Virus record (IMG/VR): IMGVR_UViG_3300029743_000281
Length of the DNA stretch: 64,000 nt
Source of the DNA: a virus
Lineage: Duplodnaviria > Heunggongvirae > Uroviricota > Caudoviricetes
Direction: 5' to 3' (one strand)
The notes beneath the pieces were generated by a model. The model was not told the origin of the DNA. It did not search any database and worked only from the letters and a program-made list of their open reading frames with translations. The position numbers and the translations under genes are program-made. Below are positions 3,018 to 64,000 of the stretch, piece by piece. Every line of letters starts with the position of its first letter. Position 1 is the stretch's first letter.

Positions 3018-3026
3018 GGTTTCACC

Positions 3027-44926: not shown

Positions 44927-44943
44927 ATTCGTTCTCCCCTTTC

Positions 44944-45604: not shown

Positions 45605-45714
45605 GAGAATCCGCCAAGGAACCCCCAGCAAGGCTGGGGCTGTTCCCCGTTGTCCCCGTTTTCCGTTGACCATATACACAGTTCTGCCGCCTAAAGATCG
45701 TGGAAGATCCTGCT

Positions 45715-45840
45715 CTTTCCCGGCTTGCTATTCTTGCAAACCAGAGCTAATATACAGTAAACTGGGAAAGGATTCTCGATGATCCGAGGCCCCCCACCAG
45801 CCCACAAGCCAGCCCCTCCTGCCTAGGCAGAAGGGGCCGT
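45715..45840 (+). ncRNA. Candidate short plus-strand transcript (sRNA or micro-ORF MIRGPPPAHKPAPPA)
   Basis: TTGCTA-17-TAATAT at 45715-45750. Terminator: near-palindrome CCCCTCCTGCCTAGGCAGAAGGGG then CCGTTTTCTTTATT. Confidence 0.3.
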
Positions 45841-45845
45841 TTTCT

Positions 45846-46672: not shown

Positions 46673-47151
46673 CCCTGCACCTCCTTGATCATCTTCTCCG
46701 CGAGTTTCTTGTTGTTGGTACACTTCTTCAGTGCGCCCTCCAAGATGTGCATCGGGAAATGAAATGCTTTATAGCCATCGTGAAGGACTCGATAGTAGTA
46801 CAGACTCGGCATTTTCTGCCCATAGTCGTGTTCCATGATGTAGACCATGGCGATGACGGTCATGGGCTCCGCATCCTTGCTCACCACCTCGACCGTCATA
46901 TTTTCCTTGCGGTAGTAGTGCGGGAAGCCCTCATAGATGTCGAGGTTCTTCTCATCGCCAGCGGAGATTTCCCACACCAGGACCGGTGTGTTCTTTCCCT
47001 TGTTCGGCAGGATGGTCGCGCAGCCGTGGAAGGCCAGCTCCCAGTCTTCCAGAACAGCCTGGCCCACAATGCGGGCATCCGGGCACCGCTGTGCCATCTG
47101 CTCCACCGACAAGTTGCTGCCGTATGCGATGTAATACTTCTTTTCGTTCAT
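46669..47151 (-). CDS. Gamma-glutamyl cyclotransferase-like (GGCT/AIG2 family) protein 1
   Basis: 'YYIAYGSNLSVEQM' signature N-terminus; 160 aa. Confidence 0.75.
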   Translation of the reverse strand: MNEKKYYIAYGSNLSVEQMAQRCPDARIVGQAVLEDWELAFHGCATILPNKGKNTPVLVWEISAGDEKNLDIYEGFPHYYRKENMTVEVVSKDAEPMTVIAMVYIMEHDYGQKMPSLYYYRVLHDGYKAFHFPMHILEGALKKCTNNKKLAEKMIKEVQG

Positions 47152-47283
47152 AGTCGCTTGCTTCTTTCGTTTCCGCTGTTGTCTGGCGGTATGCTATATA
47201 TGCCTCTGTTTTGCCCGAATAGCAAGGCCAATGTGCATCATATCCTGCACAATGATTTCCTCACAGGATCGGCAAAATTGTAC
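47152..47283 (-). repeat. Repeated promoter-leader module, copy 7
   Basis: Same conserved core. Confidence 0.65.
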
Positions 47284-47820
47284 TCAGTCGATTTCTTTGA
47301 GGAACTCCACCGCTGCCGCCTTTCCGATGCTGGAAGACAGCCCGCTGTGCAATGTATCTGTCGGGAATCCCCACTCCGTATACCCGTCTGCCAACAAGTC
47401 GAAGTACTCATGGCTGGGGCAGCCGAGCTGCCTTTCTTCGTGCAAGATGTATGCCATACAGGTTTTCAGCTTCTTCATCCGATGCCCATCCAGATTCCAG
47501 ACGGGAAGCTGGAACTGCTTCTTGTAATAGTACCGAGGGCAGCCCTCATACCGATCCAGCAGCAGTTCATCAAACTCGGAAAGCAGCCATACCACAGCTG
47601 GGACGCTTTCATTGGCATCCTGCTCGATGGTGGCGTAGCACCCGGTCTTACTTTTCTTGAACAGGAGTCGGTATCCGTAGATCTCGGTAACACCGACCGG
47701 CACCGCATAGGGGCATCTGTGCCCCATCCGTTCCATGTCAAGGTTGCTGCCGTAGGCAAGATAGTACCGAGACGGCTTTCTGCTGATCCCGCCCTTGTCG
47801 AACCGGAAGTGATCAATCAC
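47284..47820 (-). CDS. Gamma-glutamyl cyclotransferase-like (GGCT/AIG2 family) protein 2 (GTG start)
   Basis: 'YYLAYGSNLDMERM'. Proposed GTG start overlaps the upstream stop (GGTGATTGA). The longer ATG ORF would overlap gene 47813..48043. Confidence 0.65.
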   Translation of the reverse strand: MIDHFRFDKGGISRKPSRYYLAYGSNLDMERMGHRCPYAVPVGVTEIYGYRLLFKKSKTGCYATIEQDANESVPAVVWLLSEFDELLLDRYEGCPRYYYKKQFQLPVWNLDGHRMKKLKTCMAYILHEERQLGCPSHEYFDLLADGYTEWGFPTDTLHSGLSSSIGKAAAVEFLKEID

Positions 47821-48043
47821 CGACCTCACCGCCTTCCGCTGCGGAAAAGTCCACGCCGTCAAAGTCCTCAGCTTCCAGAACGATCTGTCCGTTGTGCCAC
47901 CAGTCGCTGACCGCCTGGACGGCCTCATCCATCGTGGGTTCCTTGATCTCAGATTCGTTGACCTCGACCACCCGTTTGAGGGTCTCGGTGATGACCACCC
48001 GGAACGTTCTGCCGGGTGCGGTTTCTCTGGTTTCATTTTTCAT
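47813..48043 (-). CDS. Small acidic protein (76 aa)
   Basis: RBS AGAAGGAGGGCGATACGCC then ATG. Confidence 0.55.
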   Translation of the reverse strand: MKNETRETAPGRTFRVVITETLKRVVEVNESEIKEPTMDEAVQAVSDWWHNGQIVLEAEDFDGVDFSAAEGGEVGD

Positions 48044-48113
48044 GGCGTATCGCCCTCCTTCTACCGCCTAAAGGGCGGTTGCCCGCCCGATAGGTGCCCG
48101 TGCAAGTCGGCGC

Positions 48114-49049
48114 TTATGCGTTGCGCCAGCTTGCGTTGCCCTCCATATTCCGCAGAAGGATCTCCCGTGCTGTTTTGAACTCGTCCCCGATGAAGCCCAG
48201 CCGAAGCATCCAGCACCGCATTGCGTATTTCTCATTGTCAGTCTGCTGGGGCTTGGGGCTTGCGGTCTTCACCATCTTGGCAAGCTGGCTCATTGCGAGG
48301 CAAAGCTGGATGTAGGCTTTCAGCTCACCGGCGTGAAGTCCGTTCTGCTTGCCGTCGCTGGGGTCGGCAAACTGGAAAAGCCGGAATTCAATCGTGCCCT
48401 TGGTGAAGGTGGCGTGGAGGTTCAGCATATGGTATCGGCTTTCATTGTAATGTGCCGTTCTGCCGTAGTTTGCGTGGTTGCCGGCGTACCAGATGTCGGC
48501 AAGCTCGGTCATGGTCGTCGGCTTTCTCTTGTTCAGCTGGTCAAGGAATCGGGGGTCGACCACTCGGCAGTACTGTCCGGTTCTGCCTGCATCGATGCGA
48601 ATCGCTCTGCCGATCTGTTCTTCGTGGGCGGCCATGATGTTGACCAGATTCCGCAGAGTCTTGGGGGTGTGGCTGCCCTTGCCGATGTGGATGTGAACGC
48701 CGCATCCCCGGCTGGGGCTGGACTTTGCGCCAGCCTTGCGGAGCAGTCGGATGATCGCCTGCAAGGTCTCGATGTCCTCGTAGGTAAGGATGGGGGTCAC
48801 CATCTCGCACTTTTCAGCTTCCGGTCCGTGGATGCTGATGTCTCGCTGGAATTTCCAAACCCTGCCCTGCTGGTCCTTGCAAGCCCAGCTCATGTACCCG
48901 TACTCGCCGGCTGCGTACCATGCGGTCGTTCCGAAGAACTCGGCAACCTTTCTGGCTGCTTTCTCGCGGGTGATGTTGTTCATCTCAACCTCGACCCCGA
49001 TGGTCTGCATCTTCATGGCTTCGATCTGCTCTCTGGTCTTATCGTTCAT
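48114..49049 (-). CDS. Amidoligase (Amidoligase_2-like, glutamine-synthetase-like fold)
   Basis: 'QTIGVEVEMNNITR...GCGVHIHIG'; RBS AAAAGGAGATAAACACC then ATG. Confidence 0.7.
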   Translation of the reverse strand: MNDKTREQIEAMKMQTIGVEVEMNNITREKAARKVAEFFGTTAWYAAGEYGYMSWACKDQQGRVWKFQRDISIHGPEAEKCEMVTPILTYEDIETLQAIIRLLRKAGAKSSPSRGCGVHIHIGKGSHTPKTLRNLVNIMAAHEEQIGRAIRIDAGRTGQYCRVVDPRFLDQLNKRKPTTMTELADIWYAGNHANYGRTAHYNESRYHMLNLHATFTKGTIEFRLFQFADPSDGKQNGLHAGELKAYIQLCLAMSQLAKMVKTASPKPQQTDNEKYAMRCWMLRLGFIGDEFKTAREILLRNMEGNASWRNA

Positions 49050-49240
49050 GGTGTTTATCTCCTTTTGTCTTGTTCTGTTCCCCTTGCGGTATGTGCATAT
49101 TACCGTCATGTGGGGAGGATAGCAAGGCCATAAAGGGTCAAATAATCACCGATCATTCAGGGCAAAGATCGTGTACATTATGGCGAGAAATACACTTGAT
49201 ACTGTACATTTTCAGAGTTAATATCGGTACAATGGAAGAA
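49050..49240 (-). repeat. Repeated promoter-leader module, copy 8
   Basis: Same conserved core. Confidence 0.7.
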
Positions 49241-49364
49241 GCTCTCTCTTATCCGGCGGCCCCCATAAGGGGTCAGGAGCTTACGCTCCCGCCTCCTGCG
49301 CCTGGGGTGCGCCGTCAGCCCCACAGTCGGGCTGTGTGGGGGCTTCCGCTGCCGCTTCGGCCGT

Positions 49365-50411
49365 TTAAACGCCGCCGTGTGTCGCCTGTTTTGCGACTTT
49401 CAGCGCATCTCGTTTTGCCTTTTCCTTGACCCGGAACTTTTCGGCATCTTCCTTGGTGCGGAATGCCGCATGACCGGTAAGGTTCTGCATCAGGAGCTTG
49501 CGGATGGTCTTGTGTTCATCCCCGTTCAGACCCAGTCGGATCAGCCAGATGCGAAGTGCGTACTTCTCATTGGCATCGTTGACGGTCTTTGCCTGAATCC
49601 GCTTTTGGGTAACTGCCATCCGGTTCATAGCGGAACAAAGTTCTGTGTATGCACTCACCTTCTCCTGCGTCAGCGGACCGGCAAAGGTCAGGCTGATTTT
49701 TTCTGCCGTGATAGAGATTCCAGTCATGCCGGTTGTGCCGGCACCCAGGCGGTACTCTTCCAGCTCATCCAGCATCTCCTCCACCGTGCGGGTAGATGCC
49801 TGTTCCAAGGCATCCAGCAGGCTGTTCGATACCGAGAAGTTCGTGCCCATTGCTTTGTTCAACAAAGGACCGCGGCTGTACATCAGGTTCAGGAAGTTGC
49901 GGATGCTCTGGGCTGTATGCCCCGCCATCGGTAGGCTGATGGTCAGTTCGTCCACATCCTGCAAGGTCGGCTGTTCGGTCGGAACAGGCGCCTCATCCGC
50001 ATCGGTGTCGTTCACGGTGTCCATCGGCTCATCCTCGTCCACCGGTTCCTGAACTTCCGGGGATTCCTCGGCAGTTGCGCCCGACTCCTCAGTGGGCTGA
50101 GTATCCTCTGTGCTGTCCACGGTCTCATCTGACTCTTCACACTCCGATTCCGTGGTCTCCCCGCAGGCAGCTTCGGTCTCCGGGGTCTCCACGCCTTCTT
50201 CACGGATGATGCCCTCGTCCAGCAGCGTCCGGATGATCTCCGGCGCAGCGTTATCTTCGATCACAAGCGTCCCCTCCTTTTCTACGGTGTAGCTGCCGAC
50301 AATGTAAGCGCACCGCGGCATGAAAGTGTACCGGGAATGAAGCCCGGTCAACTCCATCAGGCGGCTTACCAGCACCTTGCGATCCTCGATGTTCAATGCG
50401 TACTTTTTCAT
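49365..50411 (-). CDS. Amidoligase-like paralog with a long acidic insert
   Basis: C-terminal 80 aa align with amidoligase 48114..49049 (NEKYALRIWLIRLGLNGDEHKTIRKLL vs NEKYAMRCWMLRLGFIGDEFKTAREIL). Confidence 0.55.
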   Translation of the reverse strand: MKKYALNIEDRKVLVSRLMELTGLHSRYTFMPRCAYIVGSYTVEKEGTLVIEDNAAPEIIRTLLDEGIIREEGVETPETEAACGETTESECEESDETVDSTEDTQPTEESGATAEESPEVQEPVDEDEPMDTVNDTDADEAPVPTEQPTLQDVDELTISLPMAGHTAQSIRNFLNLMYSRGPLLNKAMGTNFSVSNSLLDALEQASTRTVEEMLDELEEYRLGAGTTGMTGISITAEKISLTFAGPLTQEKVSAYTELCSAMNRMAVTQKRIQAKTVNDANEKYALRIWLIRLGLNGDEHKTIRKLLMQNLTGHAAFRTKEDAEKFRVKEKAKRDALKVAKQATHGGV

Positions 50412-50619: not shown

Positions 50620-51429
50620 TCAGCCAGCTCCGCCCTCCAGCACAGCGATGCGACGCTCAAACTCTGCCGCCTGGTTTTCCAGTGCTCCGAGTCTCTCGGC
50701 ATCCGTCTTGGGCTTTTCCTCGGTTTCTCCGTCAAGGATCAGGTAGCGTTCCATGACATATCCGGGAATGGTGTCGTAGGTTACAGCACACCAGCCGTCT
50801 CCCTGCCCGGTCACATCCAGCCGGGTACCATTGGGAATCCATGCCAGCCGGTCTGCGGTCTTGGACGGAGCTTGACGCAGACTCAATCGCCCGCCCGTGA
50901 CGGTCGCCTTGTTTCGGGTCTCCTGCATCTTGACTTCGCTCATGTCTGTTTCCTCCTGAGTCGTTCCATAGTCGATGCCCTTCAGCCGGCCACCGTATTT
51001 CCACTTACCGAGCGTTGCATCCCGGTGGATGCTGTTGCCGTTCACCGTAGTGGAACAGTGGGTGATTTCCAGCGGACGCACCTTGGTGACGATGCCTACA
51101 TGATAGTAGTCCAGCAGATCACCGCCATCCGCCTTGTAGCGGTCCGGCAGATTGTAGCTGCTGTCTCCCGGTTTTCGGGCTTTGTAGACGATCTCACCCA
51201 CAAACAGATCAGCAGATTTGATCTCTGCAAAGTCGGTCATCTGTTTCCGGGCTGCGTAGTTACTGCCGTGGATGCCATTCCAGCCTCCACCAGCCCTGCG
51301 GACCGCACCGATGATGAGACCGATGCAGTCACAGGTGCCATCCGTGCCGCTGCCGCCGATGCGATAGTCCGGTTTCGTAGCACAGATGGCTTCGAGCTGC
51401 TCCAGAAAAGCAGCTAGTTTGATGCTCAC
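50620..51429 (-). CDS. NlpC/P60-like cysteine peptidase with C-terminal SH3b domain
   Basis: 'GTCDCIGLIIGA' resembles the NlpC/P60 Cys motif DCSGLV. 'DYYHVGIVTKV' resembles the His motif. C-terminal SH3b-like region. Confidence 0.55.
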   Translation of the reverse strand: MSIKLAAFLEQLEAICATKPDYRIGGSGTDGTCDCIGLIIGAVRRAGGGWNGIHGSNYAARKQMTDFAEIKSADLFVGEIVYKARKPGDSSYNLPDRYKADGGDLLDYYHVGIVTKVRPLEITHCSTTVNGNSIHRDATLGKWKYGGRLKGIDYGTTQEETDMSEVKMQETRNKATVTGGRLSLRQAPSKTADRLAWIPNGTRLDVTGQGDGWCAVTYDTIPGYVMERYLILDGETEEKPKTDAERLGALENQAAEFERRIAVLEGGAG

Positions 51430-53678
51430 TCCGATTCACTTCCGTTCACGGGCAATCCGGCCGCCCATGCGATGCCGGACAGTACAAAAAAGACACACGG
51501 CAGCGCGACACCATTGCCCCAGAGCTTATACTCTGCGGCATCCGAATACGGATCAGCCAGCCACTTACGGATCTGCTTTTCCGTTTTCGGTTTCTTGGCA
51601 TGGGTCACAAGTCTGCGGTGTGTTTCAAACGCATCCTGCCAGAAGGCAAGTTCCTCCTCGGTGGGGTTCTCTGTAGCGAGGTCATGGCACCACCAGTCCG
51701 GAAAACCTTGCAGCCGTGCGCACTCGGTCGGGGTCAGACGGCGGACAGTATAGGATACGGGAGCCGGCTGTGCCTCCGGGTTGTCGATGACCAGCCGGTC
51801 ATTGAAAGCATCCTGCCCGTTGAAGCCGCTGGGATGCGCCCCAGTCGCCACCGTTCCCGACACGCCATCGTTCAGGTGCGGCACCGGTGCTATGGTAGTG
51901 GGGTCCTTAAAGTCCCGGGCCATAAGGGTGGGAGATACATTCTCCTCGACCCTCATGAAGGAGCCGGTGGTCATAGCGTAGACATCTTCCGGTGCGCAGA
52001 CTGCGTGACGGTCAGTGGCATCCAGCGTAAAGCAGACATCTTCGTTGATGCCGTCGCCTTGCGGACCATTCTCGTCTTTGCGACCGATCATGTTGCCCTG
52101 CAGTACGAAGGTCTGCATCTGATCGCTCCGGGTCGCCATGAGCGCACCGGACTTTCCGTGCAGGTCGATCAGCTCATTGCGCTGATTTACATGGAATGCC
52201 GTCACGTCATCCGGCTGCGCCACAAAGGTCTGCTGTTTCATTCCCGGCTGTGCAGACAGCGAACCCGCCGTCTCGCCCAGATCCCGGACTTCATCCCGCT
52301 GGTTCTGGGTAAAGGCAACCGTCTCGACCACACAGATGCCGCCCTGGTTACAGGTCGGGTCACCGCCGCTGCGATCCAGCGTCCGGGAAGTTTCCGCTTC
52401 ATAGAATCCGCTGTGGGGGTTATCCGACATCATGGAATGGCTGGCTTTCGAGCAGACACCGTAGCACTTCGGGACGAATACAGTTTGGTCATTGTTGCAG
52501 CCGAGGGTGGCGGACTTATCCTCCTGCCAGATGGCGCCCTTGCCGCCTCCTTCACACCCAGAGCGAATCTTCAGCGTGACGGCCGGCAAGTTTTCCACCC
52601 CTTCCCTACTGTTTTCCACGCCATCCAGAACCAGCGGAACATTGCCGCCGCCCGTACCGCATCTACTGGTCAGAGTCTGTACCTTGCCATCCTTGGAAAT
52701 TTTCACTCGACTGTCAGTCGGATGATTTTCCAAAGCGATGGCGGCAGGCACGACTCCGGCCCGGAGTGTAGGAGAACGTTCTTCCTCATATCCGATGCTC
52801 CTCGCATTGGCGGAGTGTTCGGTGCAAAAACCTGCGGATTCCAAAACGCAAGGCGGGTGATGTGCCTCTGCACGGAGAATGGAGGTCACCTCTTCGGTCA
52901 CATCCATCCTCTCCCCACCCTGATCGTTCAGGCATATTCTTCCGCAGCAGCCTGCCGTTCCAGTGCCGCCTTCAGCACCGGAGGCAGCTCTTTGCCACGC
53001 ACGGAAGCTCTCCGCAGAATACCCAGACACGCCTTCGGACTCAAATAATACTTTTGGAGCACCGTGGTCTGCAAAATCTGCGACAAGGTAGATGCGTTTT
53101 CTCCTTTGGGGTACGCCCCACCATTGAGCGTCAAGAACTCGATATGCGACGCTCCATCCGTCTCCCAGATAGTAATCTGCATCGGGCCAGCCTTTTTTGT
53201 CAGGCGCAGGCACCTCGGTGGACGGTTCCTTAACACCGATGACGGCTTCGAGGACTGCCTTGAAGTCCTGTCCTTTGTTTGAGGAGAAGGCCCCCGGCAC
53301 ATTCTCCCACACGATAAATCTTGGTTTTGCTCCATTGGTCTTACACCTCATTTCCTTCACGATTCGAATCGCTTCATAGAACAGGCTGGACCGTGAACCA
53401 TCCAGACCGTCTCTTTTACCGGCAATGGACATATCCTGACAAGGACTGCCAAAGGTGATGATATCCACCGGCGGCAAGTCTGCGCCGTTGATGGCGGACA
53501 CATCTCCGTAGTGCTTCACCTCCGGCAGACGCTTGGTCGTGACCCGGATGGCGAAGGGCTCCACTTCGCTGCTCCACAGCGGCGTGATACAGCCTGTCAG
53601 TAAACCGCCCAAAGGAAAACCCCCGGAGCCATCAAAGAGGCTGCCGAGGGTCAGTTGGATATTCGATTCGGTGCTCAT
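51426..53678 (-). CDS. DNA (cytosine-5)-methyltransferase, large (750 aa)
   Basis: Motif I 'FDGSGGF', motif IV 'GSPCQDMSIAG', motif VI 'ENVPG'. Confidence 0.85.
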   Translation of the reverse strand: MSTESNIQLTLGSLFDGSGGFPLGGLLTGCITPLWSSEVEPFAIRVTTKRLPEVKHYGDVSAINGADLPPVDIITFGSPCQDMSIAGKRDGLDGSRSSLFYEAIRIVKEMRCKTNGAKPRFIVWENVPGAFSSNKGQDFKAVLEAVIGVKEPSTEVPAPDKKGWPDADYYLGDGWSVAYRVLDAQWWGVPQRRKRIYLVADFADHGAPKVLFESEGVSGYSAESFRAWQRAASGAEGGTGTAGCCGRICLNDQGGERMDVTEEVTSILRAEAHHPPCVLESAGFCTEHSANARSIGYEEERSPTLRAGVVPAAIALENHPTDSRVKISKDGKVQTLTSRCGTGGGNVPLVLDGVENSREGVENLPAVTLKIRSGCEGGGKGAIWQEDKSATLGCNNDQTVFVPKCYGVCSKASHSMMSDNPHSGFYEAETSRTLDRSGGDPTCNQGGICVVETVAFTQNQRDEVRDLGETAGSLSAQPGMKQQTFVAQPDDVTAFHVNQRNELIDLHGKSGALMATRSDQMQTFVLQGNMIGRKDENGPQGDGINEDVCFTLDATDRHAVCAPEDVYAMTTGSFMRVEENVSPTLMARDFKDPTTIAPVPHLNDGVSGTVATGAHPSGFNGQDAFNDRLVIDNPEAQPAPVSYTVRRLTPTECARLQGFPDWWCHDLATENPTEEELAFWQDAFETHRRLVTHAKKPKTEKQIRKWLADPYSDAAEYKLWGNGVALPCVFFVLSGIAWAAGLPVNGSESE

Positions 53679-54445
53679 ACAGCCTCCTCTCCGAGCATCT
53701 GCTCTTTGGCTTTCAGGTAGAAATCCCTTGACACTTCAAATCCGTAGCTGTCACGTCCCAGTTCTCTGGCAGCCCGGAGCGTTGCACCGCTGCCGGCGCA
53801 AGGGTCGATGACCACATCTCCGGGATCGGTAAAGATCTTGATCAGGCGTTTCAGCACGGACACCGGTTTCTGGGACGGATGGATCTTCGGATAGTCCTTG
53901 CCATCCCGTTTCCAGTCAAACCAATTGAAGATCATGTGGGACTTGCCGTCCTCGCCGACGTTGTTGAACTTCGGGAGCTTGCCCCGGTACAAGACCAGCG
54001 CATACTCCGTTGCACCCACGATCTTCATGTTGGCTTTCAAAACCTGCGGGCTGTAGTTCTTACAGAAGGTCAGCGGGATATAGTTCTTGAAGCCGTACTT
54101 CTCAGCTTCCGTGATGACCTTGGGGATCTGCTGGAACGCACAGAACACGATCATGCACGGTGCGCCCTTTTCCCCTTTCATGGGTTCTTTCTTCAGCAGC
54201 CGGTTACAGAAATGGAAATATTCTGCGATATTGAAAGTGAAGTCGGTGTTGAATGCCGCTTTCCGGGCCTTATCGCTCTCTCCATTCCGGTTATCTCCGT
54301 CCACATACCAATCCGGGCGGCTGGCGTAGAAGTCCGACCCGATGTTATACGGGATGTCGGCGATCACCAGCTGTGCCTTGGGGATGTTGTAGGACTTGAA
54401 GTTCTGGAAGTTGTTATGGAACAGGACACATCTGGGTTCAGTCAT
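53675..54445 (-). CDS. DNA N6-adenine/N4-cytosine methyltransferase (N6_N4_Mtase family)
   Basis: 'LVIADIPYN' DPPY-type motif and C-terminal 'VIDPCAGSGATL'. Confidence 0.8.
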   Translation of the reverse strand: MTEPRCVLFHNNFQNFKSYNIPKAQLVIADIPYNIGSDFYASRPDWYVDGDNRNGESDKARKAAFNTDFTFNIAEYFHFCNRLLKKEPMKGEKGAPCMIVFCAFQQIPKVITEAEKYGFKNYIPLTFCKNYSPQVLKANMKIVGATEYALVLYRGKLPKFNNVGEDGKSHMIFNWFDWKRDGKDYPKIHPSQKPVSVLKRLIKIFTDPGDVVIDPCAGSGATLRAARELGRDSYGFEVSRDFYLKAKEQMLGEEAV

Positions 54446-55706
54446 CTGCGTCCTCCTGTTCCGGCTGAAAGGACGCCACCTCATCGAACTTCAGCTTTTG
54501 ACCGTCACGGAGGACATACACATCCTCGTAGCGACCTTCGCTGTGTTCGATATAGCGCTTGACGATAACATCCACGAACTTGGGGTCAAGCTCAATGCCC
54601 CGGCACACCCGGTCAGTCTCCTCACAGGCGATCAAGGTCGAGCCGCTGCCGAGGAAGGGGTCAAGGACGATGCCGTTGGTCATGGTGGAGTTGCGGATGG
54701 GATAGCTCATCAGGCCGATGGGCTTCATGGTCGGGTGATCTTTGTTTGCTTTGGGACGGTCGTACTCCCAGATGGTGGTCTGCTTACGGTCGGAGTACCA
54801 CTGGTGCTTGCCCTTCAGTTTCCACCCATAGAGGCAGGGTTCATGCTGCCACTGATAGGGACTGCGACCCAGCACCAGAGCATTCTTTTTCCAGATGCAG
54901 CAACCGGACAGATAGAATCCCGCATCCTTGAACGCCTTTCGGAAATTCAGACCTTCCGTATCGGCGTGGAAGATGTAGATGGAACCGTCATCCGCCAGAT
55001 GACCGTGCATCTGCTTAAACGCCGCCAGCAGGAACTCGTAGAATTCCGAGTCGCCCATGTTGTCGTTCATGATCTTACCGGCCGATTCTTCCACATCTAC
55101 ATTGTACGGGGGATCGGAAAGCACAAGGTTGGCCTTCACGCCGTCCATCAGGGTATCGTAGCACTCAGCCTTCGTAGAATCACCGCACAGAACACGGTGC
55201 CGGCCCAGCATCCAAAGGTCACCTGCCTGCGAGAAGGTCGGCTGCTTCATCTCAGATTCCACATCGAAGTCATCTTCCTTGATGTCCTTGTCGTGGACCT
55301 TGTTGAACAGCGTCTCGATCTCAGGCGGCTCAAAGCCCGTCTTGCCCAGGTCGAAGTTGGAGTTCTCGATATCCTTCAGCAGGTCAGCCAGCAGGGAATC
55401 ATCCCACGCGCCGGTGATCTTGTTGAGCGCAATGTTCAGAGCTTTTTCTCGGTTCTTGTCGATGTCCACCACCGCACAAGGCACTTCGGTATAACCCAGT
55501 GCCATCGCAACGGTCAGGCGTTGATGGCCGCCGATGATCGTCATATCGGCATTGACCACCAGCGGATCGGCAAAACCAAACTCCTCAATGGAGTTCTTAA
55601 TCTTCTCGTACTCCTTGTCCCCCGGCTTCAGCTTTTTTCGGGGATTGTATGCAGCCGGCTTGAGTACGGTCACCGGCAGCATTTTCAGTTCAGCAGTTGC
55701 TTTCAT
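54438..55706 (-). CDS. ParB-like nuclease domain fused to a DNA methyltransferase
   Basis: N-terminal ParB-like 'LKPAAYNPRK...GGHQRL'; C-terminal 'LVLSDPPYN' and 'VLDPFLGSGSTLIAC'. Confidence 0.8.
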   Translation of the reverse strand: MKATAELKMLPVTVLKPAAYNPRKKLKPGDKEYEKIKNSIEEFGFADPLVVNADMTIIGGHQRLTVAMALGYTEVPCAVVDIDKNREKALNIALNKITGAWDDSLLADLLKDIENSNFDLGKTGFEPPEIETLFNKVHDKDIKEDDFDVESEMKQPTFSQAGDLWMLGRHRVLCGDSTKAECYDTLMDGVKANLVLSDPPYNVDVEESAGKIMNDNMGDSEFYEFLLAAFKQMHGHLADDGSIYIFHADTEGLNFRKAFKDAGFYLSGCCIWKKNALVLGRSPYQWQHEPCLYGWKLKGKHQWYSDRKQTTIWEYDRPKANKDHPTMKPIGLMSYPIRNSTMTNGIVLDPFLGSGSTLIACEETDRVCRGIELDPKFVDVIVKRYIEHSEGRYEDVYVLRDGQKLKFDEVASFQPEQEDADD

Positions 55707-57016: not shown

Positions 57017-58084
57017 TCATTCCTCCCACGGCAGACCGGGCTTGCCGAAGTGACCGTAGGCACTGACCTTGTTGTAGTCCACGTCCAGCAGACCCAGACG
57101 CTGGATGATACCCTGCGGGGTCAGGTCGTAGCTGTCCTTGACGTAAGCCTGGATGAAGTCCAGCGGCTGGTGTTCCGTGCCGAAACACTCCACCGCCACG
57201 CCCACCGGCTGTACCACACCGATGGCATACGCCAGCTGGACTTCGCACTTGTCAGCGTAGCCGGCCTGCACGATGTCCTTGGCGATCTTCCGTGCCATAT
57301 ATGCTGCGGACCTGTCCACCTTGGTGGGGTCTTTGCCACTGAGGGCACCGCCGCCCATTCGACCGATACCGCCGTAGGTATCGCACGCCAGCTTACGGCC
57401 GGTGACACCACAGTCGGCGTAGCTGCCACCCAGCACGAACCGACCGGTGGGGTTCACCAGTTTCTGGAAGTTCCCGTCCAGACCGTACTCACAGGCAGCC
57501 AGCACCATCATGGATTCGATGATGTGGCGGAAGTCGCTGACCTCCACGTCCGGGCTGTGCTGCACGGAGCAGAGGAACGTAGTGATTCGGCCGGTGTCGT
57601 AGTCGTAGCTGACCTGCGCCTTGGCATCTGCCCGGAACATCTTGCTCGGATGGTTCTTCAGCAGTTGCAGGAACTTGGTGGCGACCATGTAGGGGATCGG
57701 CATCTGTTCGGCAGTCTCGTTGGTGGCATAACCGTACATGATGCCCTGGTCACCGGCACCGCCCTTATCCACGCCCAGTGCAATATCCGGCGACTGCTTA
57801 TCGACCAGGATGCCGATGCGGAGCAGTTCCCGGAAATCAAAGCCCATCTTGTCTGCACCGATACGGGTGATGACCTCATGGACGATCTGCTGGTAGTTGG
57901 GCTGGTAATCGGTGGTGACCTCGCCAGCGATAAAGAGCTGGCTGCGTTTCAGCAGACACTCGGTTGCCACACGGGCGTTCTTGTCGTGCTGGAGGATGTC
58001 GGTCACAATGGCATCTGCGATCTGGTCGCAGATCTTGTCCGGGTGGCCGTTGCTGACCTGCTCACAGGTGATAATCTTGCTCAT
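57017..58084 (-). CDS. metK: S-adenosylmethionine synthetase (MetK homolog, short form ~355 aa)
   Basis: Signatures 'GHPDKICDQIADA', 'GAGDQGIMYGYA', 'DTYGG', 'GGGALSGKDPTKVDRSAAY'. Confidence 0.85.
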   Translation of the reverse strand: MSKIITCEQVSNGHPDKICDQIADAIVTDILQHDKNARVATECLLKRSQLFIAGEVTTDYQPNYQQIVHEVITRIGADKMGFDFRELLRIGILVDKQSPDIALGVDKGGAGDQGIMYGYATNETAEQMPIPYMVATKFLQLLKNHPSKMFRADAKAQVSYDYDTGRITTFLCSVQHSPDVEVSDFRHIIESMMVLAACEYGLDGNFQKLVNPTGRFVLGGSYADCGVTGRKLACDTYGGIGRMGGGALSGKDPTKVDRSAAYMARKIAKDIVQAGYADKCEVQLAYAIGVVQPVGVAVECFGTEHQPLDFIQAYVKDSYDLTPQGIIQRLGLLDVDYNKVSAYGHFGKPGLPWEE

Positions 58085-58099: not shown

Positions 58100-58560
58100 T
58101 CATGTATCACAAAGCAGGCCGCCTTTGCCGTTGCCCACAAACGTAGGCTCCCACAAAAGCTGCCTGCTCAGTATCGTGTGGTTTTCATCTTTTTGTTGCT
58201 GGTCTGTTGCCAGTTCTTCCCTCACAAAATGAGGGGTCAGATTCTTAAAAAGCATTGTTATTACGATGTTTTCAAGGCTTTCATTCTACTCTTTTTATCT
58301 TTTGTTGCTAATGTTGCTGGTAAAAAGTAAATCGCATATAAAAGAAAAGAATAATAAAAAAATAGGGTTTTGAGTCGCAACATCAGCAACACGTCCAAAA
58401 GCGCCGATATATCAGCGTTTTTCTGTTGCCGGTCTGTTGCCGATGTTGCTGGTCGAGGCTCAGAAGTGGTCTTGCAGTTCTGTAAAACCCAACTTTTGTG
58501 GCCATGGTGAGTCGCTTTCACGACTGAGCCGTGCCGCCCTTGTGTTCACTCTGCGGTCAC
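58100..58560. promoter_or_regulatory. AT-rich region with clustered TGTTGC iterons (candidate replication origin and/or operator array)
   Basis: At least 9 copies of TGTTGC in paired arrangements (TGTTGCtggtcTGTTGCcag; TGTTGCtaaTGTTGCtggt; TGTTGCcggtcTGTTGCcgaTGTTGCtggtcg) around an A-rich tract. Lies directly upstream of the primase-helicase gene. Confidence 0.5.
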
Positions 58561-60965
58561 TCCGGCACTACATTGAAGTCGCCTTTTGTGGTTTCGGAGA
58601 GGCAGAATTCCACGCCCAAAACGATCTGTGTTGTACTGCCGACACCATCCGCCGGACGCTTTTTCTGCACTGTGTACCTCTTGTCGATCTCGGCATTCAG
58701 CACCTTGGCCGAGTCTGCCCTGTACCCGTTTTCAGCACACCATTCCTTGTAGCGTGTATAAACGGCAGCACGGCGAAGCTCACTATCTGCTTTCGGTTGG
58801 AGACATTCACTGAAGAACTGCCCCATCTTATCCGAGAACATCTGGTAGTCCATGGTGGCCTGCACGACAGAATCCGGCATCTCCAGACCCTGACTGCGAA
58901 ACAACTTATACCCTTCCAGCATCCAGTTCAGGATACCAGACATATTTTCCGGTTCCGCAAAGAAGCCCTTCAATCCCTTATCCTGCTCTTTTTCATCAAA
59001 GTGGCGGTCAAAGGGAATGATTTTGATACGACCGGACTCGAACAAGGTCAGGTCCGTGATGTTCGGACGGTGGTTCGTGTTGATGAAGATCTTGAAGTTC
59101 GGACGGAACTCGAAGCTATTCTCATGCAAATATCGGGCCGTGATGGTGTCGTTACCAGTCAGGCGTTTGGTCAGGGCTGCATCCAACGTGATCTTCTTCT
59201 CCGGCTCAGAGATATTAACAAACCGGGAGCCGGCAAGGCGTGCAATCTCCTCAGACGGTCCGCCACTTTGGGCATTGAACTTTGCCTGCAGCATAGTCGG
59301 GTCGGCGTTTTTGCCGTACTCGCCCATGATCCGCAGGATGCTTTCCATGGTGGTGCCCTTGCCGTTTCGGGAAGTAGGACCATAGAGGATGAACAGACAT
59401 TCCATCCTCGTATCACCGGTCAAGGCGTATCCGATGGCTTTTTGCAGATAGTCGGCTCTCGCCTTATCCCCTTGCATGATCTCTGTGATGAAAGTCCGCC
59501 AGCGAGGGCAGTCTGCTTTCGGGTCATAGATGACCGGGGACACCTTTGTGAGGTAGTCGTCCGGGCGGTGTTCCCGGAACTCCATCGTCCGCAGATCCAG
59601 CGTTCCGTTCTGGCAGTTGAACAGGTAGATATCCCGGTCGTAGTGTTTCATGGACAGTGGGAACACAGACTTTGCATCCTTCAGCATGGTTTCCCGATGC
59701 TTTCTGAGCTGGAGCTTCCGCACCCTGTCGATGAATCGCTTTCGGGCATCTTCCTCTGTGATCGTCAGGGCAAACACATACAGCTTGTCTGCCAGCAGCT
59801 TCGCTAGTTCCGCCACCTTGAGGTTTTCTGTGTCCGGCTGCCAGACCTTCCCGTCATAAACATACCAGATGCCGCGCTCACTGTTATACCGGGCGATGGG
59901 CTTGAAGAAATCGGCAAACATATTGCCCATGCCGATCTCATCCCTGCCGTATCTGGGATTGGTGTGCGGAGCCATCTCATCCAACGACAGGGTGAGCTTT
60001 GTGATGTCCGGCTGGAACTCCGGGGATTTAGACTCCGGGTCAAGGTTTGTGAACTCCTCGTCCACGATGTCCTGTGCGTTGACCGGAACGTACACCGCTG
60101 CACAGGTGTTGACGGTGTTCCGAATGGAGATCGCACCGTAAGTCGTACCGGCCTGCCGGCGATCCCACTTGTCACGCATCAGGCCGGAGGTGCGAAAGAT
60201 GCGGTCCATCTGTTCTTCATCGCAGCCGCACCAGAACGCAAGGATGGACAGAAGTGCCATGTCCGCATCCGACTGGCTGTCATAGAGTTCTTCCCAGTCA
60301 CCGGCGTAGAGCTTCTTGAACTTGTCGCTGTTGCTGGCCTCCTCTGCATGGGCAATGACCGCGTCATCGTCCAGATACGAATGATGCCGAAGCTGTGTGT
60401 TCTGCACCTGCTTGTTGCGCTTCATCAGCGAATCCAGCAAGGTGGTCATAGCCGTCTCATCGTTGGGGATCTCCCCTGTGCGGTAAACATCTCCCGTCAC
60501 GGTGACGAAGCGGTTTGTCGCACCGGGCATGTACACTTCCAGCCCTTTGCTTCGGTTGTTGATGTAATAGACCGTCTTGTCATAGACAAAATCTTCCGGC
60601 ACACAGAAAAAGCCTCGCAGTCCCTTGCCGGACGGAGACTTCTCAACGTATGCCGTGGGGAAAATAGAAAGGACGGTCGCCGCTGTGTCATTCAGCGTAC
60701 CGTCCTCTCGGATACAGTGGTCTATATCGAATGCGCCGATGCCGTTTCCAACTGCAATGCCGATGCCGTCATAACCACCCATCGCGTAAGCCATGAGGGT
60801 GGTTTTGAAATCGGCAAATGTGCGCAGGTCGTTGATTCTGGCCCGGTCTCCATTGACCGGGTTGTACGGCATCTTGGTCTTCTGACCGCTGCGCTTTTCA
60901 AACTTCCAGACGCAGAACCGGCAGTCACTCTTCAGTTTCGCCGGAATGTTCTTGATGTCTACCAC
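58557..60965 (-). CDS. Replicative primase-helicase (PrimPol-like N-terminus, primase C-terminal domain, D5/P4-type SF3 helicase)
   Basis: 802 aa; Walker A 'GPTSRNGKGT'; N-terminal PrimPol-like 'GIAVGNGIGAFDIDH'. Confidence 0.8.
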   Translation of the reverse strand: MVDIKNIPAKLKSDCRFCVWKFEKRSGQKTKMPYNPVNGDRARINDLRTFADFKTTLMAYAMGGYDGIGIAVGNGIGAFDIDHCIREDGTLNDTAATVLSIFPTAYVEKSPSGKGLRGFFCVPEDFVYDKTVYYINNRSKGLEVYMPGATNRFVTVTGDVYRTGEIPNDETAMTTLLDSLMKRNKQVQNTQLRHHSYLDDDAVIAHAEEASNSDKFKKLYAGDWEELYDSQSDADMALLSILAFWCGCDEEQMDRIFRTSGLMRDKWDRRQAGTTYGAISIRNTVNTCAAVYVPVNAQDIVDEEFTNLDPESKSPEFQPDITKLTLSLDEMAPHTNPRYGRDEIGMGNMFADFFKPIARYNSERGIWYVYDGKVWQPDTENLKVAELAKLLADKLYVFALTITEEDARKRFIDRVRKLQLRKHRETMLKDAKSVFPLSMKHYDRDIYLFNCQNGTLDLRTMEFREHRPDDYLTKVSPVIYDPKADCPRWRTFITEIMQGDKARADYLQKAIGYALTGDTRMECLFILYGPTSRNGKGTTMESILRIMGEYGKNADPTMLQAKFNAQSGGPSEEIARLAGSRFVNISEPEKKITLDAALTKRLTGNDTITARYLHENSFEFRPNFKIFINTNHRPNITDLTLFESGRIKIIPFDRHFDEKEQDKGLKGFFAEPENMSGILNWMLEGYKLFRSQGLEMPDSVVQATMDYQMFSDKMGQFFSECLQPKADSELRRAAVYTRYKEWCAENGYRADSAKVLNAEIDKRYTVQKKRPADGVGSTTQIVLGVEFCLSETTKGDFNVVPE

Positions 60966-61363
60966 GTTCTCGCCTCCTTCTTGGTAATAGTGTCGGCAGT
61001 GCCCATGTTAAAGAACACCGCGATTGCCTGCTCCACTTCCCGCTGCTTGGCGGTAGAGGTCAGGCTTCCCAGCTTGTTCAGCAGGGCGTTCTTTCCGATG
61101 GTCGTGACCTGCTCTGCCAGTGCGACAGAGTTGCGCAGATACGCATGGTCATTGATCATTTGACAGTCTGCCTCTGCGATCTGAATGTGCGTGGGCAGAC
61201 CCTGCTTCTTCTGCACGGTGGTCAGGGGGATCACCGTCAGGGTGCTGGAGAAGCGGTTTGCCACATCGTTGCTGATGACCAGCACCGGGCGGCTGCCGCT
61301 CTGCACGGAACTGCCGTAATGGTCGCCCAGCTCGGCAAACCAGATTTCAAACCGCTGCACCAC
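60959..61363 (-). CDS. MazF/PemK/EndoA-family endoribonuclease toxin (GTG start proposed)
   Basis: 'FEIWFAELGDHYGSSVQSGSRPVLVISNDVANRFSSTLTVIPLTT' closely parallels B. subtilis EndoA/MazF. The track ORF extends 100 codons upstream as basic low-complexity sequence with no ATG. Confidence 0.7.
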   Translation of the reverse strand: MVQRFEIWFAELGDHYGSSVQSGSRPVLVISNDVANRFSSTLTVIPLTTVQKKQGLPTHIQIAEADCQMINDHAYLRNSVALAEQVTTIGKNALLNKLGSLTSTAKQREVEQAIAVFFNMGTADTITKKEARTW

Positions 61364-61689
61364 CTGCTGCGGAGAATCCTGCTGCGGTATGTCCTGCCGC
61401 AACGCTTCCTTCTGGGCAGACTTTTCAGATCGGGCAGTGTGCTGCTTGCGGAGCAGCCGCCCTTTCTGGTTGATGTATTTATTCACATGAGGTCTTGAAC
61501 GACCGTTCTTATTCTTGCGACCCAATGAAAACTCACCTCTTTTTCCCGGTCGATAGACCTTGGGTTGATGTAAAAGTAAAAAGCCGGACAGAGAAGTCAC
61601 AGCTTTGGCGGCGAATCGATCGCCGCAACAAAAAAGCCGAAGCAAAGTCATTTCTGACCGCCTCGGCAATACGCTTCTCTATCCAGCTT

Positions 61690-61730
61690 TTCCAGTATAA
61701 ATTATACCAAATTGAGGGCGTACCGTAAAG
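61690..61730 (-). promoter_or_regulatory. Near-consensus sigma-A promoter driving the mazF-primase operon
   Basis: Minus strand TTTACG-17-TGgTATAAT (with TTGACA further upstream). Followed by a ~330-nt leader with a hairpin GCCGAGGC-N16-GCTTCGGC then TTTTTTGTTG. Confidence 0.5.
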
Positions 61731-61791
61731 AAATGATTTTGTCAAGAAACCCTTGAAAATGTCAATAAACTACTGTAATGTGCGGTCTATT

Positions 61792-62229
61792 TCAACTTTT
61801 TTCTTCAAGTTTTCGCAGCTCCAAAGCAAGCAGCTCCAAGCCCAACTTTTTGAAGTGTCGGGCACGATTTACTCCAAGTACATGATCTTGCAAATCACAG
61901 ATTTCTTTGAGTGCTTTACCGTCCAAATAAAAGCCAACAACAGCCTCTCTTGCATTGGCATGTGGAATTGCCCATATCGCACGGATCAGCTTCTCCAGTG
62001 ACTCCCATTTCTGCTGACACTTCTTTTCCTTTTCTTCGAGCATGAATTGATACAGTTCTTGCTCGTTCTGGCTCTCGGCTTTACCCAGACTTTCCTTGAT
62101 GTCTGACATTTCCTGCTCCATAGCCAGCAGTTCCTCTCGAATGTGGGGAATCGCCTTGCAACATTCAAGAGCGTGGTTCACCTCCGCCTCAGTTGGCGGA
62201 TGATTTCCCAGAATACTCGGTCTTGCCAT
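61792..62229 (-). CDS. Hypothetical protein (possible small regulatory protein)
   Basis: 145-aa ORF, helical, no assignable family. Confidence 0.45.
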   Translation of the reverse strand: MARPSILGNHPPTEAEVNHALECCKAIPHIREELLAMEQEMSDIKESLGKAESQNEQELYQFMLEEKEKKCQQKWESLEKLIRAIWAIPHANAREAVVGFYLDGKALKEICDLQDHVLGVNRARHFKKLGLELLALELRKLEEKS

Positions 62230-62794
62230 TCTGTTTTCCTCCTCTCATGCGGTCTTTGTACTCCAAGACGACCGCAATTTTCTCTAGTGCCCTCTCCCGT
62301 TCAGCCTCCACAGTCTTCCGCCCCAGCACCTTGCCGGAGCTATCCTCCACCGTAGGGATGGCTTTCCGCTGCACAAAGAGCTGATGGGCAACAAGCTGTG
62401 TCCGTCCTCGCAGACTGCGCAGCCCGATTTCAAACAACTCGATCTCCTCACAGACCCGGCGGTACGGAGTGATCAGTTCTTCCTCCCGGCGCTCCTGAAT
62501 CTCTCGGTTCATGGATGCCAGTACCTTGTCGCAGTTGAGGACGGTGCGTTCCACCGGGTTGGACGTACCGCTTGTTTTAACTCGCTCGCCCTGCTCATGC
62601 GCTCCCTGCGACAGCTTGTAGATGACCTCGTCCCGGGTATAAAACCAGGCGTGGGATTCGTCGATCTGCCGCTTGAGTTCCTGCTTTCTCGCCAGAAGCT
62701 GTGGATAGGAATCGGCCAGTTCTCTGGCTTTTTCCATATAATCCGGTGTCCCAACAGAGGTCTGCGCCTCACCGGGATGTGTTTCTTCGCTCAT
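62189..62794 (-). CDS. Hypothetical protein
   Basis: RBS AAAGGAGGGCTTGACC then ATG (MSEETHPGEAQ). Confidence 0.5.
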   Translation of the reverse strand: MSEETHPGEAQTSVGTPDYMEKARELADSYPQLLARKQELKRQIDESHAWFYTRDEVIYKLSQGAHEQGERVKTSGTSNPVERTVLNCDKVLASMNREIQERREEELITPYRRVCEEIELFEIGLRSLRGRTQLVAHQLFVQRKAIPTVEDSSGKVLGRKTVEAERERALEKIAVVLEYKDRMRGGKQNGKTEYSGKSSAN

Positions 62795-62827
62795 GGTCAA
62801 GCCCTCCTTTCTGACCGATGTTCTGTA

Positions 62828-63157
62828 TCACATGACTGCCGCAGCCGAGAGATTCCTTTTAGCAGCTTTTCTCTCGGCTCGTTCCCGTGCCTTTGCCCTG
62901 CCTCGCTCCCAGCGTTCAACATTGATATCTGCCTGCCGCTTTGCCTCCTGCATCAGGATTTCCGGGTCCAGTTCAGTCAAAGTCCGATACCACTTCGAGT
63001 GGAAGAATCGCTCCAGTTTCTTTTTGCTGGACCGGTGTTTCCATTCCTCCGGCTCCTGCACCAGCTTGAACAGTGCTTTCCGATAATCCTTGAATGCCTG
63101 CAAAACGATGGCGTTTGCCAGTTCTGCGTAGCACTCGGCATACTCAACATTTCCCAT
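62828..63157 (-). CDS. Hypothetical basic protein
   Basis: 109-aa ORF; K/R-rich C-terminus. Confidence 0.45.
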   Translation of the reverse strand: MGNVEYAECYAELANAIVLQAFKDYRKALFKLVQEPEEWKHRSSKKKLERFFHSKWYRTLTELDPEILMQEAKRQADINVERWERGRAKARERAERKAAKRNLSAAAVM

Positions 63158-63860
63158 CGCCACTCTCCTTTGTGTCGTACCACGGCTTCACGAGCCGCTT
63201 GCCCTCAAGGCTGCAAGGATAGAGCTGGATGTCGTACCACGCCAGCTCATACATCTCATCCAGCAGACGGCGGTTGGGTTCCGGCAGGTTTGCGGCATAC
63301 TGGATGAACGCCTCGATAAACCGGGACTGGCTCGTTTCATCCTTCATCTGCCGTGCATAAACCGCCTCAGCGAACCGAAAGCACTGTTTCTTGTGCTGCT
63401 GAATCCAGTCGTACTTCCAAGTGATGGCTTTGAGGAGCGTTTTGCGGCTCTCATCCGACGTGACCTTGGGCATGGCCGCCTGCTGGCCCTTTTCTCGCAG
63501 ACGGGTGTAGCGTTCCCACGCTCTGTCCTCACTGCTGAAAATCAGCCGACAGCGTAGTTCCTCCAGTCGGACGACATACATAAGCCGACTGATTTCATTT
63601 TCGTAGAGGTCTTTGACCAGAAAGTCAAAGTTCATTTTGAGGTCAGCGGTGCGGCGCACCGGATTGTCCCCCAGCAGCTCACAGAGCAAGCCGGGTTCCC
63701 GGATGGGACGGAACATCGCATACGGAATTGTGAAGCCAACTTCATCGTGCTTGGGCTTGGTTGTTGCCACCGGCTTGGCAGTTTTATAGCGGTAATCGCT
63801 GTGTTCAAGGCTCAGACCAGTATTGCGGTCTTTCTCGTTCAAAAACAAAATCTTATCCAT
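63144..63860 (-). CDS. Hypothetical protein
   Basis: RBS GGAGGAATGAGA then ATG (MDKILFLNEK). Confidence 0.5.
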   Translation of the reverse strand: MDKILFLNEKDRNTGLSLEHSDYRYKTAKPVATTKPKHDEVGFTIPYAMFRPIREPGLLCELLGDNPVRRTADLKMNFDFLVKDLYENEISRLMYVVRLEELRCRLIFSSEDRAWERYTRLREKGQQAAMPKVTSDESRKTLLKAITWKYDWIQQHKKQCFRFAEAVYARQMKDETSQSRFIEAFIQYAANLPEPNRRLLDEMYELAWYDIQLYPCSLEGKRLVKPWYDTKESGDGKC

Positions 63861-63865
63861 TCTCA

Positions 63866-64000
63866 TTCCTCCAGCCGTGCTTTGACGGCAGAAATCAGCT
63901 TTTCCTGTGTCATGTCTTTCTGTTCCAAGGCTGCCATCACATCCTCGTCCACTGTGTCCTTTGTGATGATGTGGTGGATGGTGACCACCTGTGTCTGGCC
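63866..64000 (-). CDS. SNF2-family helicase, C-terminal fragment (gene continues right of window)
   Basis: 'GQTQVVTIHHIITKDTVDEDVMAALEQK' resembles the conserved SNF2 helicase C-terminal motif region. Stop at ~63866. Confidence 0.5.

Follow-up and report, generated by a model that had tools for sequence, protein, structure and literature searches.

A putative MazF-family ribonuclease gene with no recognizable antitoxin is paired with a P4-family primase gene and preceded by nested terminators in a phage genome

The 64,000-nt stretch of Caudoviricetes DNA analyzed here (IMG/VR record IMGVR_UViG_3300029743_000281; hereafter the window) carries on its minus strand, to which all features of the locus described below belong, a gene for an N-terminally extended MazF/PemK endoribonuclease (60959..61525). 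The gene overlaps the start of a P4-family primase gene, lacks a recognizable antitoxin partner, and is separated from its own promoter by two nested intrinsic terminators. We tentatively propose, and rate as somewhat short of an even chance, that it encodes a phage RNase of the MazF/PemK family which does without a protein antitoxin, is made together with the primase, and would be kept silent in the lysogen by the terminators. Of the new observations at this locus, the pairing with the primase carries the most weight; it had been missed by an earlier inspection of the DNA letters without database searches (the sequence-only reading), which had drawn attention to the toxin-like domain and its leader.

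The assignment of the domain is straightforward. Residues 57-172 (61010..61357) match Pfam family PF02452 over profile positions 1-109 of 109, scoring 75.2 bits where 23.1 is the cut-off (E=5.8e-21). A PDB search places B. anthracis PemK (4hke) and B. subtilis EndoA (4mdx, 1ne8) closest among the solved structures (E~1e-16); to the latter, the protein is 39% identical over 116 residues, which bears out the likeness to EndoA/MazF RNases that had been noticed before. In the B. subtilis enzyme, MazF-Bs, Arg25 and Thr48 are essential, and Gly18 and Pro26 make further contacts (PMC8634880). An alignment with EndoA, the check which the sequence-only reading had proposed for the catalytic residues, places R79, T102, G71 and P80 of the phage protein at Arg25, Thr48, Gly18 and Pro26, respectively; N90 is retained as well. 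Across an 80-sequence alignment, R79 and P80 never vary and conservation of G71 is at least 90%; T102, in a 20-sequence alignment, is likewise conserved to at least 90%, being Thr in the window and Ser in some members. The motifs GxRPVLVIxND, LPTH and EQxxTI are common to EndoA and the phage protein. AlphaFold2, run as a monomer with 80 sequences, returns the MazF-type order of strands and helices for this domain, albeit with modest confidence (pLDDT only 57-70). Judged by its conserved residues, the protein looks like an active MazF-type RNase.

The complete coding sequence is longer than the domain suggests. It starts at a TTG codon (61525..61523), 7 nt behind a Shine-Dalgarno sequence (GAGGTGA, 61533..61539), and ends with a TAG stop codon (60961..60959), giving a product of 188 aa. 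We identified 41 relatives on viral contigs, with 45-98% identity, all of which align from residue 1 of the TTG-started protein and all of which (41/41) possess the homologous start codon, TTG or ATG, behind GGAGGTG. Close relatives use TTG and distant ones ATG, and non-ATG starts (TTG or GTG) are present in several lineages. The reading frame is open from 61669 down to the stop codon, and the sequence-only reading had placed the gene at 60959..61363, describing the 100 in-frame codons upstream as basic sequence of low complexity; these codons are not all meaningless. While the stop codon and the domain of that gene model stand, its extent does not. That is, the first 48 in-frame codons (61669..61526) lie upstream of the real start and are non-coding, since they coincide with the structured leader described below, and the corresponding open stretch ranges from 8 to 76 codons in relatives; the following 55 codons, however, separate the TTG start from the MazF domain and encode a real N-terminal extension composed of a conserved motif and a variable linker.

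Contrary to the earlier statement that no ATG-initiated ORF exists upstream, there is an in-frame ATG at 61651..61649, which has no ribosome-binding site and lies in the GAAA loop of a terminator hairpin (T1, see below). Gene callers start at this ATG and predict a 230-aa product (P0001, whose cluster has 1144 member sequences). Many database entries share this systematic mis-annotation of the start site, which the corrected gene model mends. We also considered that the reading frame might be a pseudogene or chance ORF; strong purifying selection and universal retention rule this out.

The conserved part of the extension is a basic motif spanning residues 1-27 (MGRKNKNGRSRPHVNKYINQKGRLLRK, 61445..61525), in which M1, G2, R3, N15, K16, Y17 and I18 are invariant among 80 sequences. 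For informative sequence pairs, pN in this tail is 0.09-0.16 and pS 0.64-0.93, giving a dN/dS of 0.04-0.10 compared to 0.05-0.13 for the MazF domain; purifying selection is thus as strong on the tail as on the domain. The linker (residues 28-55, 61361..61444) varies in length, has a dN/dS of mostly 0.2-1.5 where estimable, and is modeled with a pLDDT of <45. When 1.84 billion cluster representatives were searched exhaustively with a profile, 7069 MazF-family matches were obtained, and ∼35 of the top 150 MazF clusters align from position 1 with the common pattern MGRKN(K/R)R...(LGFNP)xKYI. The motif was found only in this MazF clade; a profile search for the tail fused to other domains brought up nothing but copies of this gene that were truncated or frameshifted.

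A conserved tail under purifying selection, joined to a toxin-like domain through a fast-evolving flexible linker, might be taken for a fused antitoxin; the tail would then act as an intramolecular inhibitor, as in EzeT or CapRel, to be freed by proteolysis or some trigger. We give this very little credence. MazE-type inhibitors fill the positively charged RNA groove of their toxins with acidic segments, whereas the tail is strongly basic. Moreover, AlphaFold2 leaves the tail undocked on the domain and without secondary structure (pLDDT 36-52), and it has no similarity to any antitoxin family.

Two sets of variant copies should be mentioned here. About 10 distinct metagenome copies keep the tail motif while being frameshifted before or inside the MazF domain (P0122, P0123, P0125, P0127, P0131, P0137, P0138, P0144, P0146), perhaps because a toxic gene was inactivated in nature or perhaps through errors of assembly. 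In addition, some polypeptides contain a tandem pair of MazF domains, and one contains four of them (P0192, P0196, P0237, P0256, P0273, P0290, P0294, P0296); these are possible single-chain dimers.

With regard to a protein that would neutralize the toxin, the previous conclusion that no antitoxin ORF can be recognized has held up. Between the promoter and the MazF domain we found no ORF of the RHH, AbrB or MazE type. A look for cryptic small antitoxin ORFs in the leader, as had been suggested, yielded no conserved small ORF, which speaks against a peptide antitoxin encoded there. Pfam detected no MazE, AbrB, RHH, PemI or other antitoxin domain in 26 ORFs of the early region, nor does the precomputed Pfam annotation list one in the 20-kb neighborhoods of four relatives. 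Thus, the adjacent and co-transcribed antitoxin gene typical of type II mazEF/pemIK loci appears to be absent, and the gene found downstream is that of the 802-aa primase.

This downstream gene (58557..60965) encodes a P4-family primase of the Prim-pol/D5-type (SF3) helicase architecture, with matches to Pfam D5_N, NrS1-1_pol-like_HBD, DUF5906 and Pox_D5 and to TIGR01613 (E=3e-71). Its translation signals (60963..60977) reside inside the 3′ end of the MazF gene. Specifically, a GGAGG (60977..60973) within the sequence for the conserved MazF C-terminus KEARTW is followed, after 7 nt, by a GTG start codon (60965..60963) which overlaps the MazF stop codon as GTGGTAG. Stop/start overlaps of -4 to -20 nt are seen in most relatives.

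The pairing extends to every intact relative of the primase for which upstream DNA is available. Searching with the primase, we obtained 61 relatives on viral contigs (50-99% identity), and the tailed MazF is encoded directly upstream in 58/58 intact ones with upstream DNA. Two of the other three are cut at the contig end, and the third (L099), the sole apparent exception to the absence of MazF-free primases among the loci retrieved, is a truncated remnant. A second scan, using a primase profile, found the tailed MazF upstream in 75/75 loci. When distant tailed MazFs were taken as the starting point, relatives turned up on at least 477 viral contigs, and the same ∼810-aa primase is the next gene in 27/32 of the more distant loci, nearly always starting 4-20 nt before the MazF stop codon. 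Two 50%-identity clusters (P0271, P0321) even consist of single polypeptides with a PemK_toxin and a VapE-like helicase domain, although these could be frameshift or assembly artefacts of the overlapping genes. As for L099, a primase fragment truncated at both ends (2474-3940) is situated beside a 517-aa ORF on the opposite strand (1070-2623), which, read by eye, resembles a Y-family polymerase gene; the contig is a rearranged module remnant.

Such tight pairing invites the alternative that the MazF protein works physically with the primase-helicase, either because the primase neutralizes it in a kind of non-canonical toxin-antitoxin pair, or because the MazF fold and its basic tail have been co-opted as an accessory subunit of the replication initiator that handles RNA or ssDNA. 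The pair persists without exception among primases whose identity has fallen to 50-60%, the MazF-primase junction remains intact while upstream genes come and go, overlaps of stop and start are the rule, and the two fusion clusters are independent of one another. Furthermore, the N-terminal motif is conserved wherever the primase is, and not wherever the leader is. Invariant synteny and fusions argue for a partnership of this kind more strongly than for mere co-expression, and early work reportedly tied the toxicity of Kid/PemK to DnaB-dependent replication. Nevertheless, the RNA-binding and catalytic residues of the phage protein are conserved as in true RNases, the primase contains no antitoxin-like domain by Pfam, and the fusions may be the artefacts mentioned above. 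Also, MazF cleavage leaves a 2′,3′-cyclic phosphate, an end unable to prime DNA synthesis. We consider this alternative, the main rival to our preferred reading, possible but on the whole unlikely. The more specific claim that the tailed MazF is a dedicated partner of P4-type primase-helicases, be it as a toxin checked by or acting through the replication initiator or as a replisome subunit, strikes us as doubtful; if true, it would define a widespread MazF-primase module in Clostridia phages, with an RNase mechanistically tied to the start of DNA replication.

Our preferred reading, that of an antitoxin-free RNase silenced by termination, draws on the region upstream of the gene. As the sequence-only reading had recognized, there is a SigA/sigma-70-type promoter (61729..61701) made up of a -35 element TTTACG (61729..61724), a 17-nt spacer and an extended -10 element TGgTATAAT (61709..61701); in a promoter scan it scored 10 of 12 consensus matches with the TG present. 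The extended -10 element occurs at the same place in all relatives having this leader. Taking the transcription start from the position of the -10 element, we deduce an untranslated leader RNA of ∼170 nt (∼61693..61526), shorter than the ∼330 nt previously proposed. It contains two terminators, one nested in the other. In the outer stem, P1, 61692..61672 is base-paired with 61598..61578, and a U5 tract (61582..61578) at the end of the stem makes it terminator T2 (61578..61692). Enclosed by P1 are the inner intrinsic terminator T1, with the hairpin GCCGAGGCGGUCA-GAAA-UGACUUUGCUUCGGC (61667..61636) and a subsequent U6 tract (61635..61630), and a second internal hairpin (GCGGCGAUCGAUUCGCCGC, 61608..61626). 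T1 confirms the terminator-like hairpin with six U residues that had been pointed out earlier. Minimum-free-energy and centroid structures agree on this arrangement. The leader folds with -62.8 kcal/mol compared to -33.7 +/- 3.4 for shuffled sequences (z=-8.6), none of the 200 shuffles being as stable (0/200), and a longer leader segment gives z=-6.05.

This architecture is conserved beyond its sequence. We distinguished twelve leader types whose stem sequences are wholly different and which nonetheless follow the same logic: in all of them, an extended -10 element precedes a terminator with A-tract, hairpin and U-tract, often nested or doubled, and then a ribosome-binding site. The eleven types other than that of the window have z-scores of -3.6 to -9.3. 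Between the window group and the L014 group, 4-6 pairs of T1 have changed on both sides and stay paired; likewise, loop and stem of the second hairpin vary among close relatives with pairing kept. The same arrangement is present in isolate genomes, including those of Clostridium fessum and Faecalibacterium intestinale. Since the promoter-proximal terminator structure is conserved, attenuation control, one of the options raised by the sequence-only reading, is a reasonable proposition.

There is precedent for such wiring. At lambda PR′-6S RNA-tR′ under Q and in the P4 alpha operon under CI RNA, a strong promoter reads into one or more promoter-proximal terminators and yields a short RNA unless RNA polymerase is modified, and the P4 operon controlled in this way contains a P4-family primase. 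The window locus shares with the Q-type arrangement the strong promoter and the promoter-proximal intrinsic terminators. Searches of Pfam, PHROG, NCBIfam, Rfam and PDB detected no homologue of Q, N or CI RNA.

A leader RNA made in excess might also serve as the antitoxin itself, binding the tail or the active site and thereby inactivating MazF, which in turn could trim read-through transcripts at UACAU, the recognition sequence of EndoA-type MazF proteins. The order of promoter, noncoding RNA, terminator and RNase gene is indeed that of the type III toxIN, cptIN and tenpIN loci, including the terminator between RNA and toxin gene (here T1 and T2), and ToxN has a Kid/MazF-like fold. The tail is rich in arginine and lysine, as might suit RNA binding in this scheme. 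In addition, a UACAU pentamer lies just 3′ of the T2 U-tract (61568..61572), and most lineages, the distant L120 and L142 among them, have one right behind their terminator U-tract. However, the locus differs from type III systems in that the toxin belongs to PF02452 and not to ToxN/AbiQ, and in that the RNA has no tandem repeats: for 60900..62300, the sole entry given by Tandem Repeats Finder is a 20-nt chance repeat situated elsewhere. The stems covary and the loops drift as they would in plain terminators, no Rfam family matched in the leader or in the whole window, and potential leader-RNA targets elsewhere in the window amount to chance complementarity of no more than 13 nt. Finally, distant modules keep the tail and yet lack both the promoter and the structured leader. 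We regard RNA neutralization, which the sequence-only reading had entertained, as very unlikely in view of the missing repeats and the leaderless distant modules. As a side note, a further UACAU at 61473-61477 arises from the conserved Lys-Tyr-Ile codons of the tail, AAA TAC ATC, and TAC is used in 9/9 of the lineages with KYI.

Where the module resides also bears on its control. It belongs to a prophage of gut Clostridia: it is integrated in the chromosomes of Clostridium fessum and Faecalibacterium intestinale, and one protein cluster is named from Gemmiger formicilis. Chromosomal integration indicates that the phage is temperate, and the presence of the module in lysogen chromosomes that lysogens tolerate the gene. 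According to our preferred reading, in this lineage the near-consensus SigA-type promoter would fire into two nested intrinsic terminators, so that most transcripts should end as leader RNAs of ∼65 or ∼115 nt. Expression of MazF and primase would depend on terminator read-through or antitermination in lytic development, and the weak TTG start codon would keep translation low, too. Given that the primase start overlaps the MazF stop, the two proteins should be made together. At the onset of phage DNA replication, the RNase would then cleave single-stranded RNA of the host, and perhaps also early RNA of the phage, at a specific short motif. An antitoxin would be unnecessary, because the gene would be transcriptionally silent in the lysogen and the cell already committed to lysis by the time it is expressed.

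The opposite timing, with MazF present at low level in the lysogen and activated by an incoming phage so as to abort its infection, would make the protein a single-component system for prophage defence or superinfection exclusion. A documented precedent is Sma of SaPIpT1028, a MazF-like protein that a mobile element carries without an antitoxin gene and that acts against phages (PMC12409344, PMC12829572). Here, too, the element is a prophage, and the gene has its own near-consensus promoter. However, comparison with Sma by its description reveals clear differences. While Sma is expressed in the lysogenic state from an accessory or defence island, the present gene is a fixed core gene of its phage family, not a variable accessory gene, and has terminators between promoter and coding sequence. 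It sits in the lytic replication module, translationally coupled to a primase which a lysogen should not express. In addition, no PADLOC defence model matched. We thus deem a defence role improbable.

Several observations weigh against silencing by termination as the explanation for an antitoxin-free toxin. First, distant MazF-primase modules have no promoter and no structured leader, which means that termination control is not a general route to toxin tolerance. Second, a strong promoter placed right before terminators is unexplained without a known antiterminator. Third, a protein serving simply to shut off the host would have no need to remain attached to the primase gene across such divergence, or to be fused to a VapE helicase domain; the pattern points to a functional link closer than co-expression. 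Fourth, the enzyme may not behave like EndoA. Its β1-β2 loop, invariantly HYGSSVQSG as opposed to VVGSEQGG in EndoA, is one residue longer and without the Glu (E20 in MazF-Bs), so that specificity, and conceivably activity, may differ. In view of the lost Glu and the longer loop, UACAU specificity is not to be assumed. The score of the NCBIfam MazF equivalog, 24 bits against a cut-off of 120, is likewise far below equivalog level, and the protein would on both counts fall outside the EndoA group of UACAU-specific orthologues. Last, there is no sign of self-immunity, as UACAU is not avoided: the window has 39 occurrences versus 42 expected, and in the MazF and primase genes of 13 lineages the pentamer is enriched, with 42 versus 27 expected. 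Note that a dip in the tail-gene region (1 versus 7-11 expected) was seen post hoc and is too weak to use, and that no pentamers in the window are selectively avoided except restriction-type and TAG-containing words.

How does this locus relate to known systems? EndoA (ndoAI/ndoA) and B. anthracis PemK are of the same fold family, with the catalytic Arg and Thr in common. In contrast to the EndoA system, the phage gene has no upstream MazE/EndoAI gene, its product carries the additional 55-residue basic extension, and it is part of a prophage replication module where it overlaps a primase gene. T4 RegB, a sequence-specific early phage RNase with a toxin-like (RelE/YoeB-like) fold, acts in lytic growth without an antitoxin. 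However, RegB is of an unrelated fold family and from a virulent phage, and it lacks both the coupling to a primase and a terminator-guarded leader.

Closer in kind are MazF-like proteins of other phages. The window protein matches PHROG 1936, MazF-like growth inhibitor, with 76.5 bits (E=4.6e-21), and 98 cultured or assembled phage records carry a MazF-like gene, among them FP_Brigit, a Faecalibacterium phage, and Maenad, a Lactobacillus phage; Evtepia phage NatCom_42594 is another example. Like the protein studied here, the PHROG 1936/35650 members FP_Brigit gp83, Maenad gp061 and that of NatCom_42594 are phage PemK-domain proteins with no annotated antitoxin next to them. They are, however, at most 42% identical to it and devoid of the MGRKN..KYI tail, and the three records inspected show no P4-type primase as a neighbor. 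The searchable literature yielded no functional characterization of these PHROG 1936/35650 proteins. In one gut phageome, moreover, annotations of PemK outnumbered those of any other toxin (PMC10858875). Phage MazF proteins without antitoxin having been catalogued already, a point that the sequence-only reading had also overlooked, solitary status alone is not new. What we did not find in the searchable literature are the N-terminal motif, the obligate and translationally coupled pairing with a P4-family primase, the MazF-VapE fusions, and the nested-terminator leader. While phage copies of MazF have been labeled only as growth inhibitors with no known mechanism, this locus provides a concrete and widespread case, present in prophages of cultured Clostridium fessum, Faecalibacterium intestinale and Gemmiger as well as in the viral contigs counted above. 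It could show how transcriptional and translational control alone make a toxin tolerable, or else that phage replication is directly linked to an RNase with a toxin fold.

The gene had previously been placed at the head of the replication operon. This is not the case: in relatives, the same strand encodes upstream of it an HTH regulator, a Sigma70_r4 protein, a PD-(D/E)XK nuclease, an ssDNA-binding protein, PolA, DUF932 and an SNF2 helicase. In distant lineages (L118-L151), the MazF gene directly follows the SNF2 helicase gene, whereas in the window four small genes (240, 111, 203 and 145 aa; 61792-63866), the promoter and the nested terminators lie in between. From the adjacency in the distant lineages we infer that these elements are an insertion upstream of an older, unbroken MazF-primase unit.

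Two of the small genes, p145 (61792..62229) and p203 (62189..62800), encode proteins whose C-termini read like a sigma region 4 helix-turn-helix. Profile hints are weak (PHROG 36, transcriptional regulator, E=7e-4; SigH region 4, E=0.04), neither has a PDB match, and PADLOC, NCBIfam and PDB searches were uninformative; p203 has counterparts of 29-63% identity in other lineages. By inspection and on these sub-threshold matches, p145 and p203 are candidate regulators of the promoter.

The promoter itself is surrounded by further motifs. Two TTGACA hexamers upstream of the -35 element (61765..61760 and 61745..61740), the first of which is listed by the promoter scan, could be alternative -35 elements or regulator sites. 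One base past the -10 element, there is a second -10-like hexamer, TATACT (61694..61699). Such tandem hexamers, that is, TGnTATAAT and then TATAMT 0-1 nt later, are conserved in every lineage examined (61694-61709 in the window; L010-L108) although the flanks diverge, and they appear reminiscent of sigma-dependent promoter-proximal pause elements.

As for the remainder of the window, ORFs on the minus strand follow one another, with short gaps or overlaps, over essentially all of the 64 kb, which suggests that the whole phage genome is transcribed unidirectionally. A DNA-level search of cultured phage genomes gave no match. On the minus strand, 42232-50411 comprises a cluster of the nucleotide- or DNA-modification type, with genes for Nmad4 (42232-42516), DUF3846 (45846-46313), DUF4314 (46214-46723), two GGACT/AIG2-like cyclotransferases (46669-47151, 47284-48036) and an Amidoligase_2 protein (48114-49109). 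The most under-represented 5-mers of the window are CCWGG, GGWCC and those containing GATC, and the stretch 51426-55706 contains genes for a ParB-N6/N4 methyltransferase, a second N6/N4 methyltransferase and a C5 DNA methylase; taken together, depletion and methyltransferases look like restriction avoidance with self-methylation. Closer to the primase gene, relatives have an S-adenosylmethionine synthetase as the homologue of 57017-58084.

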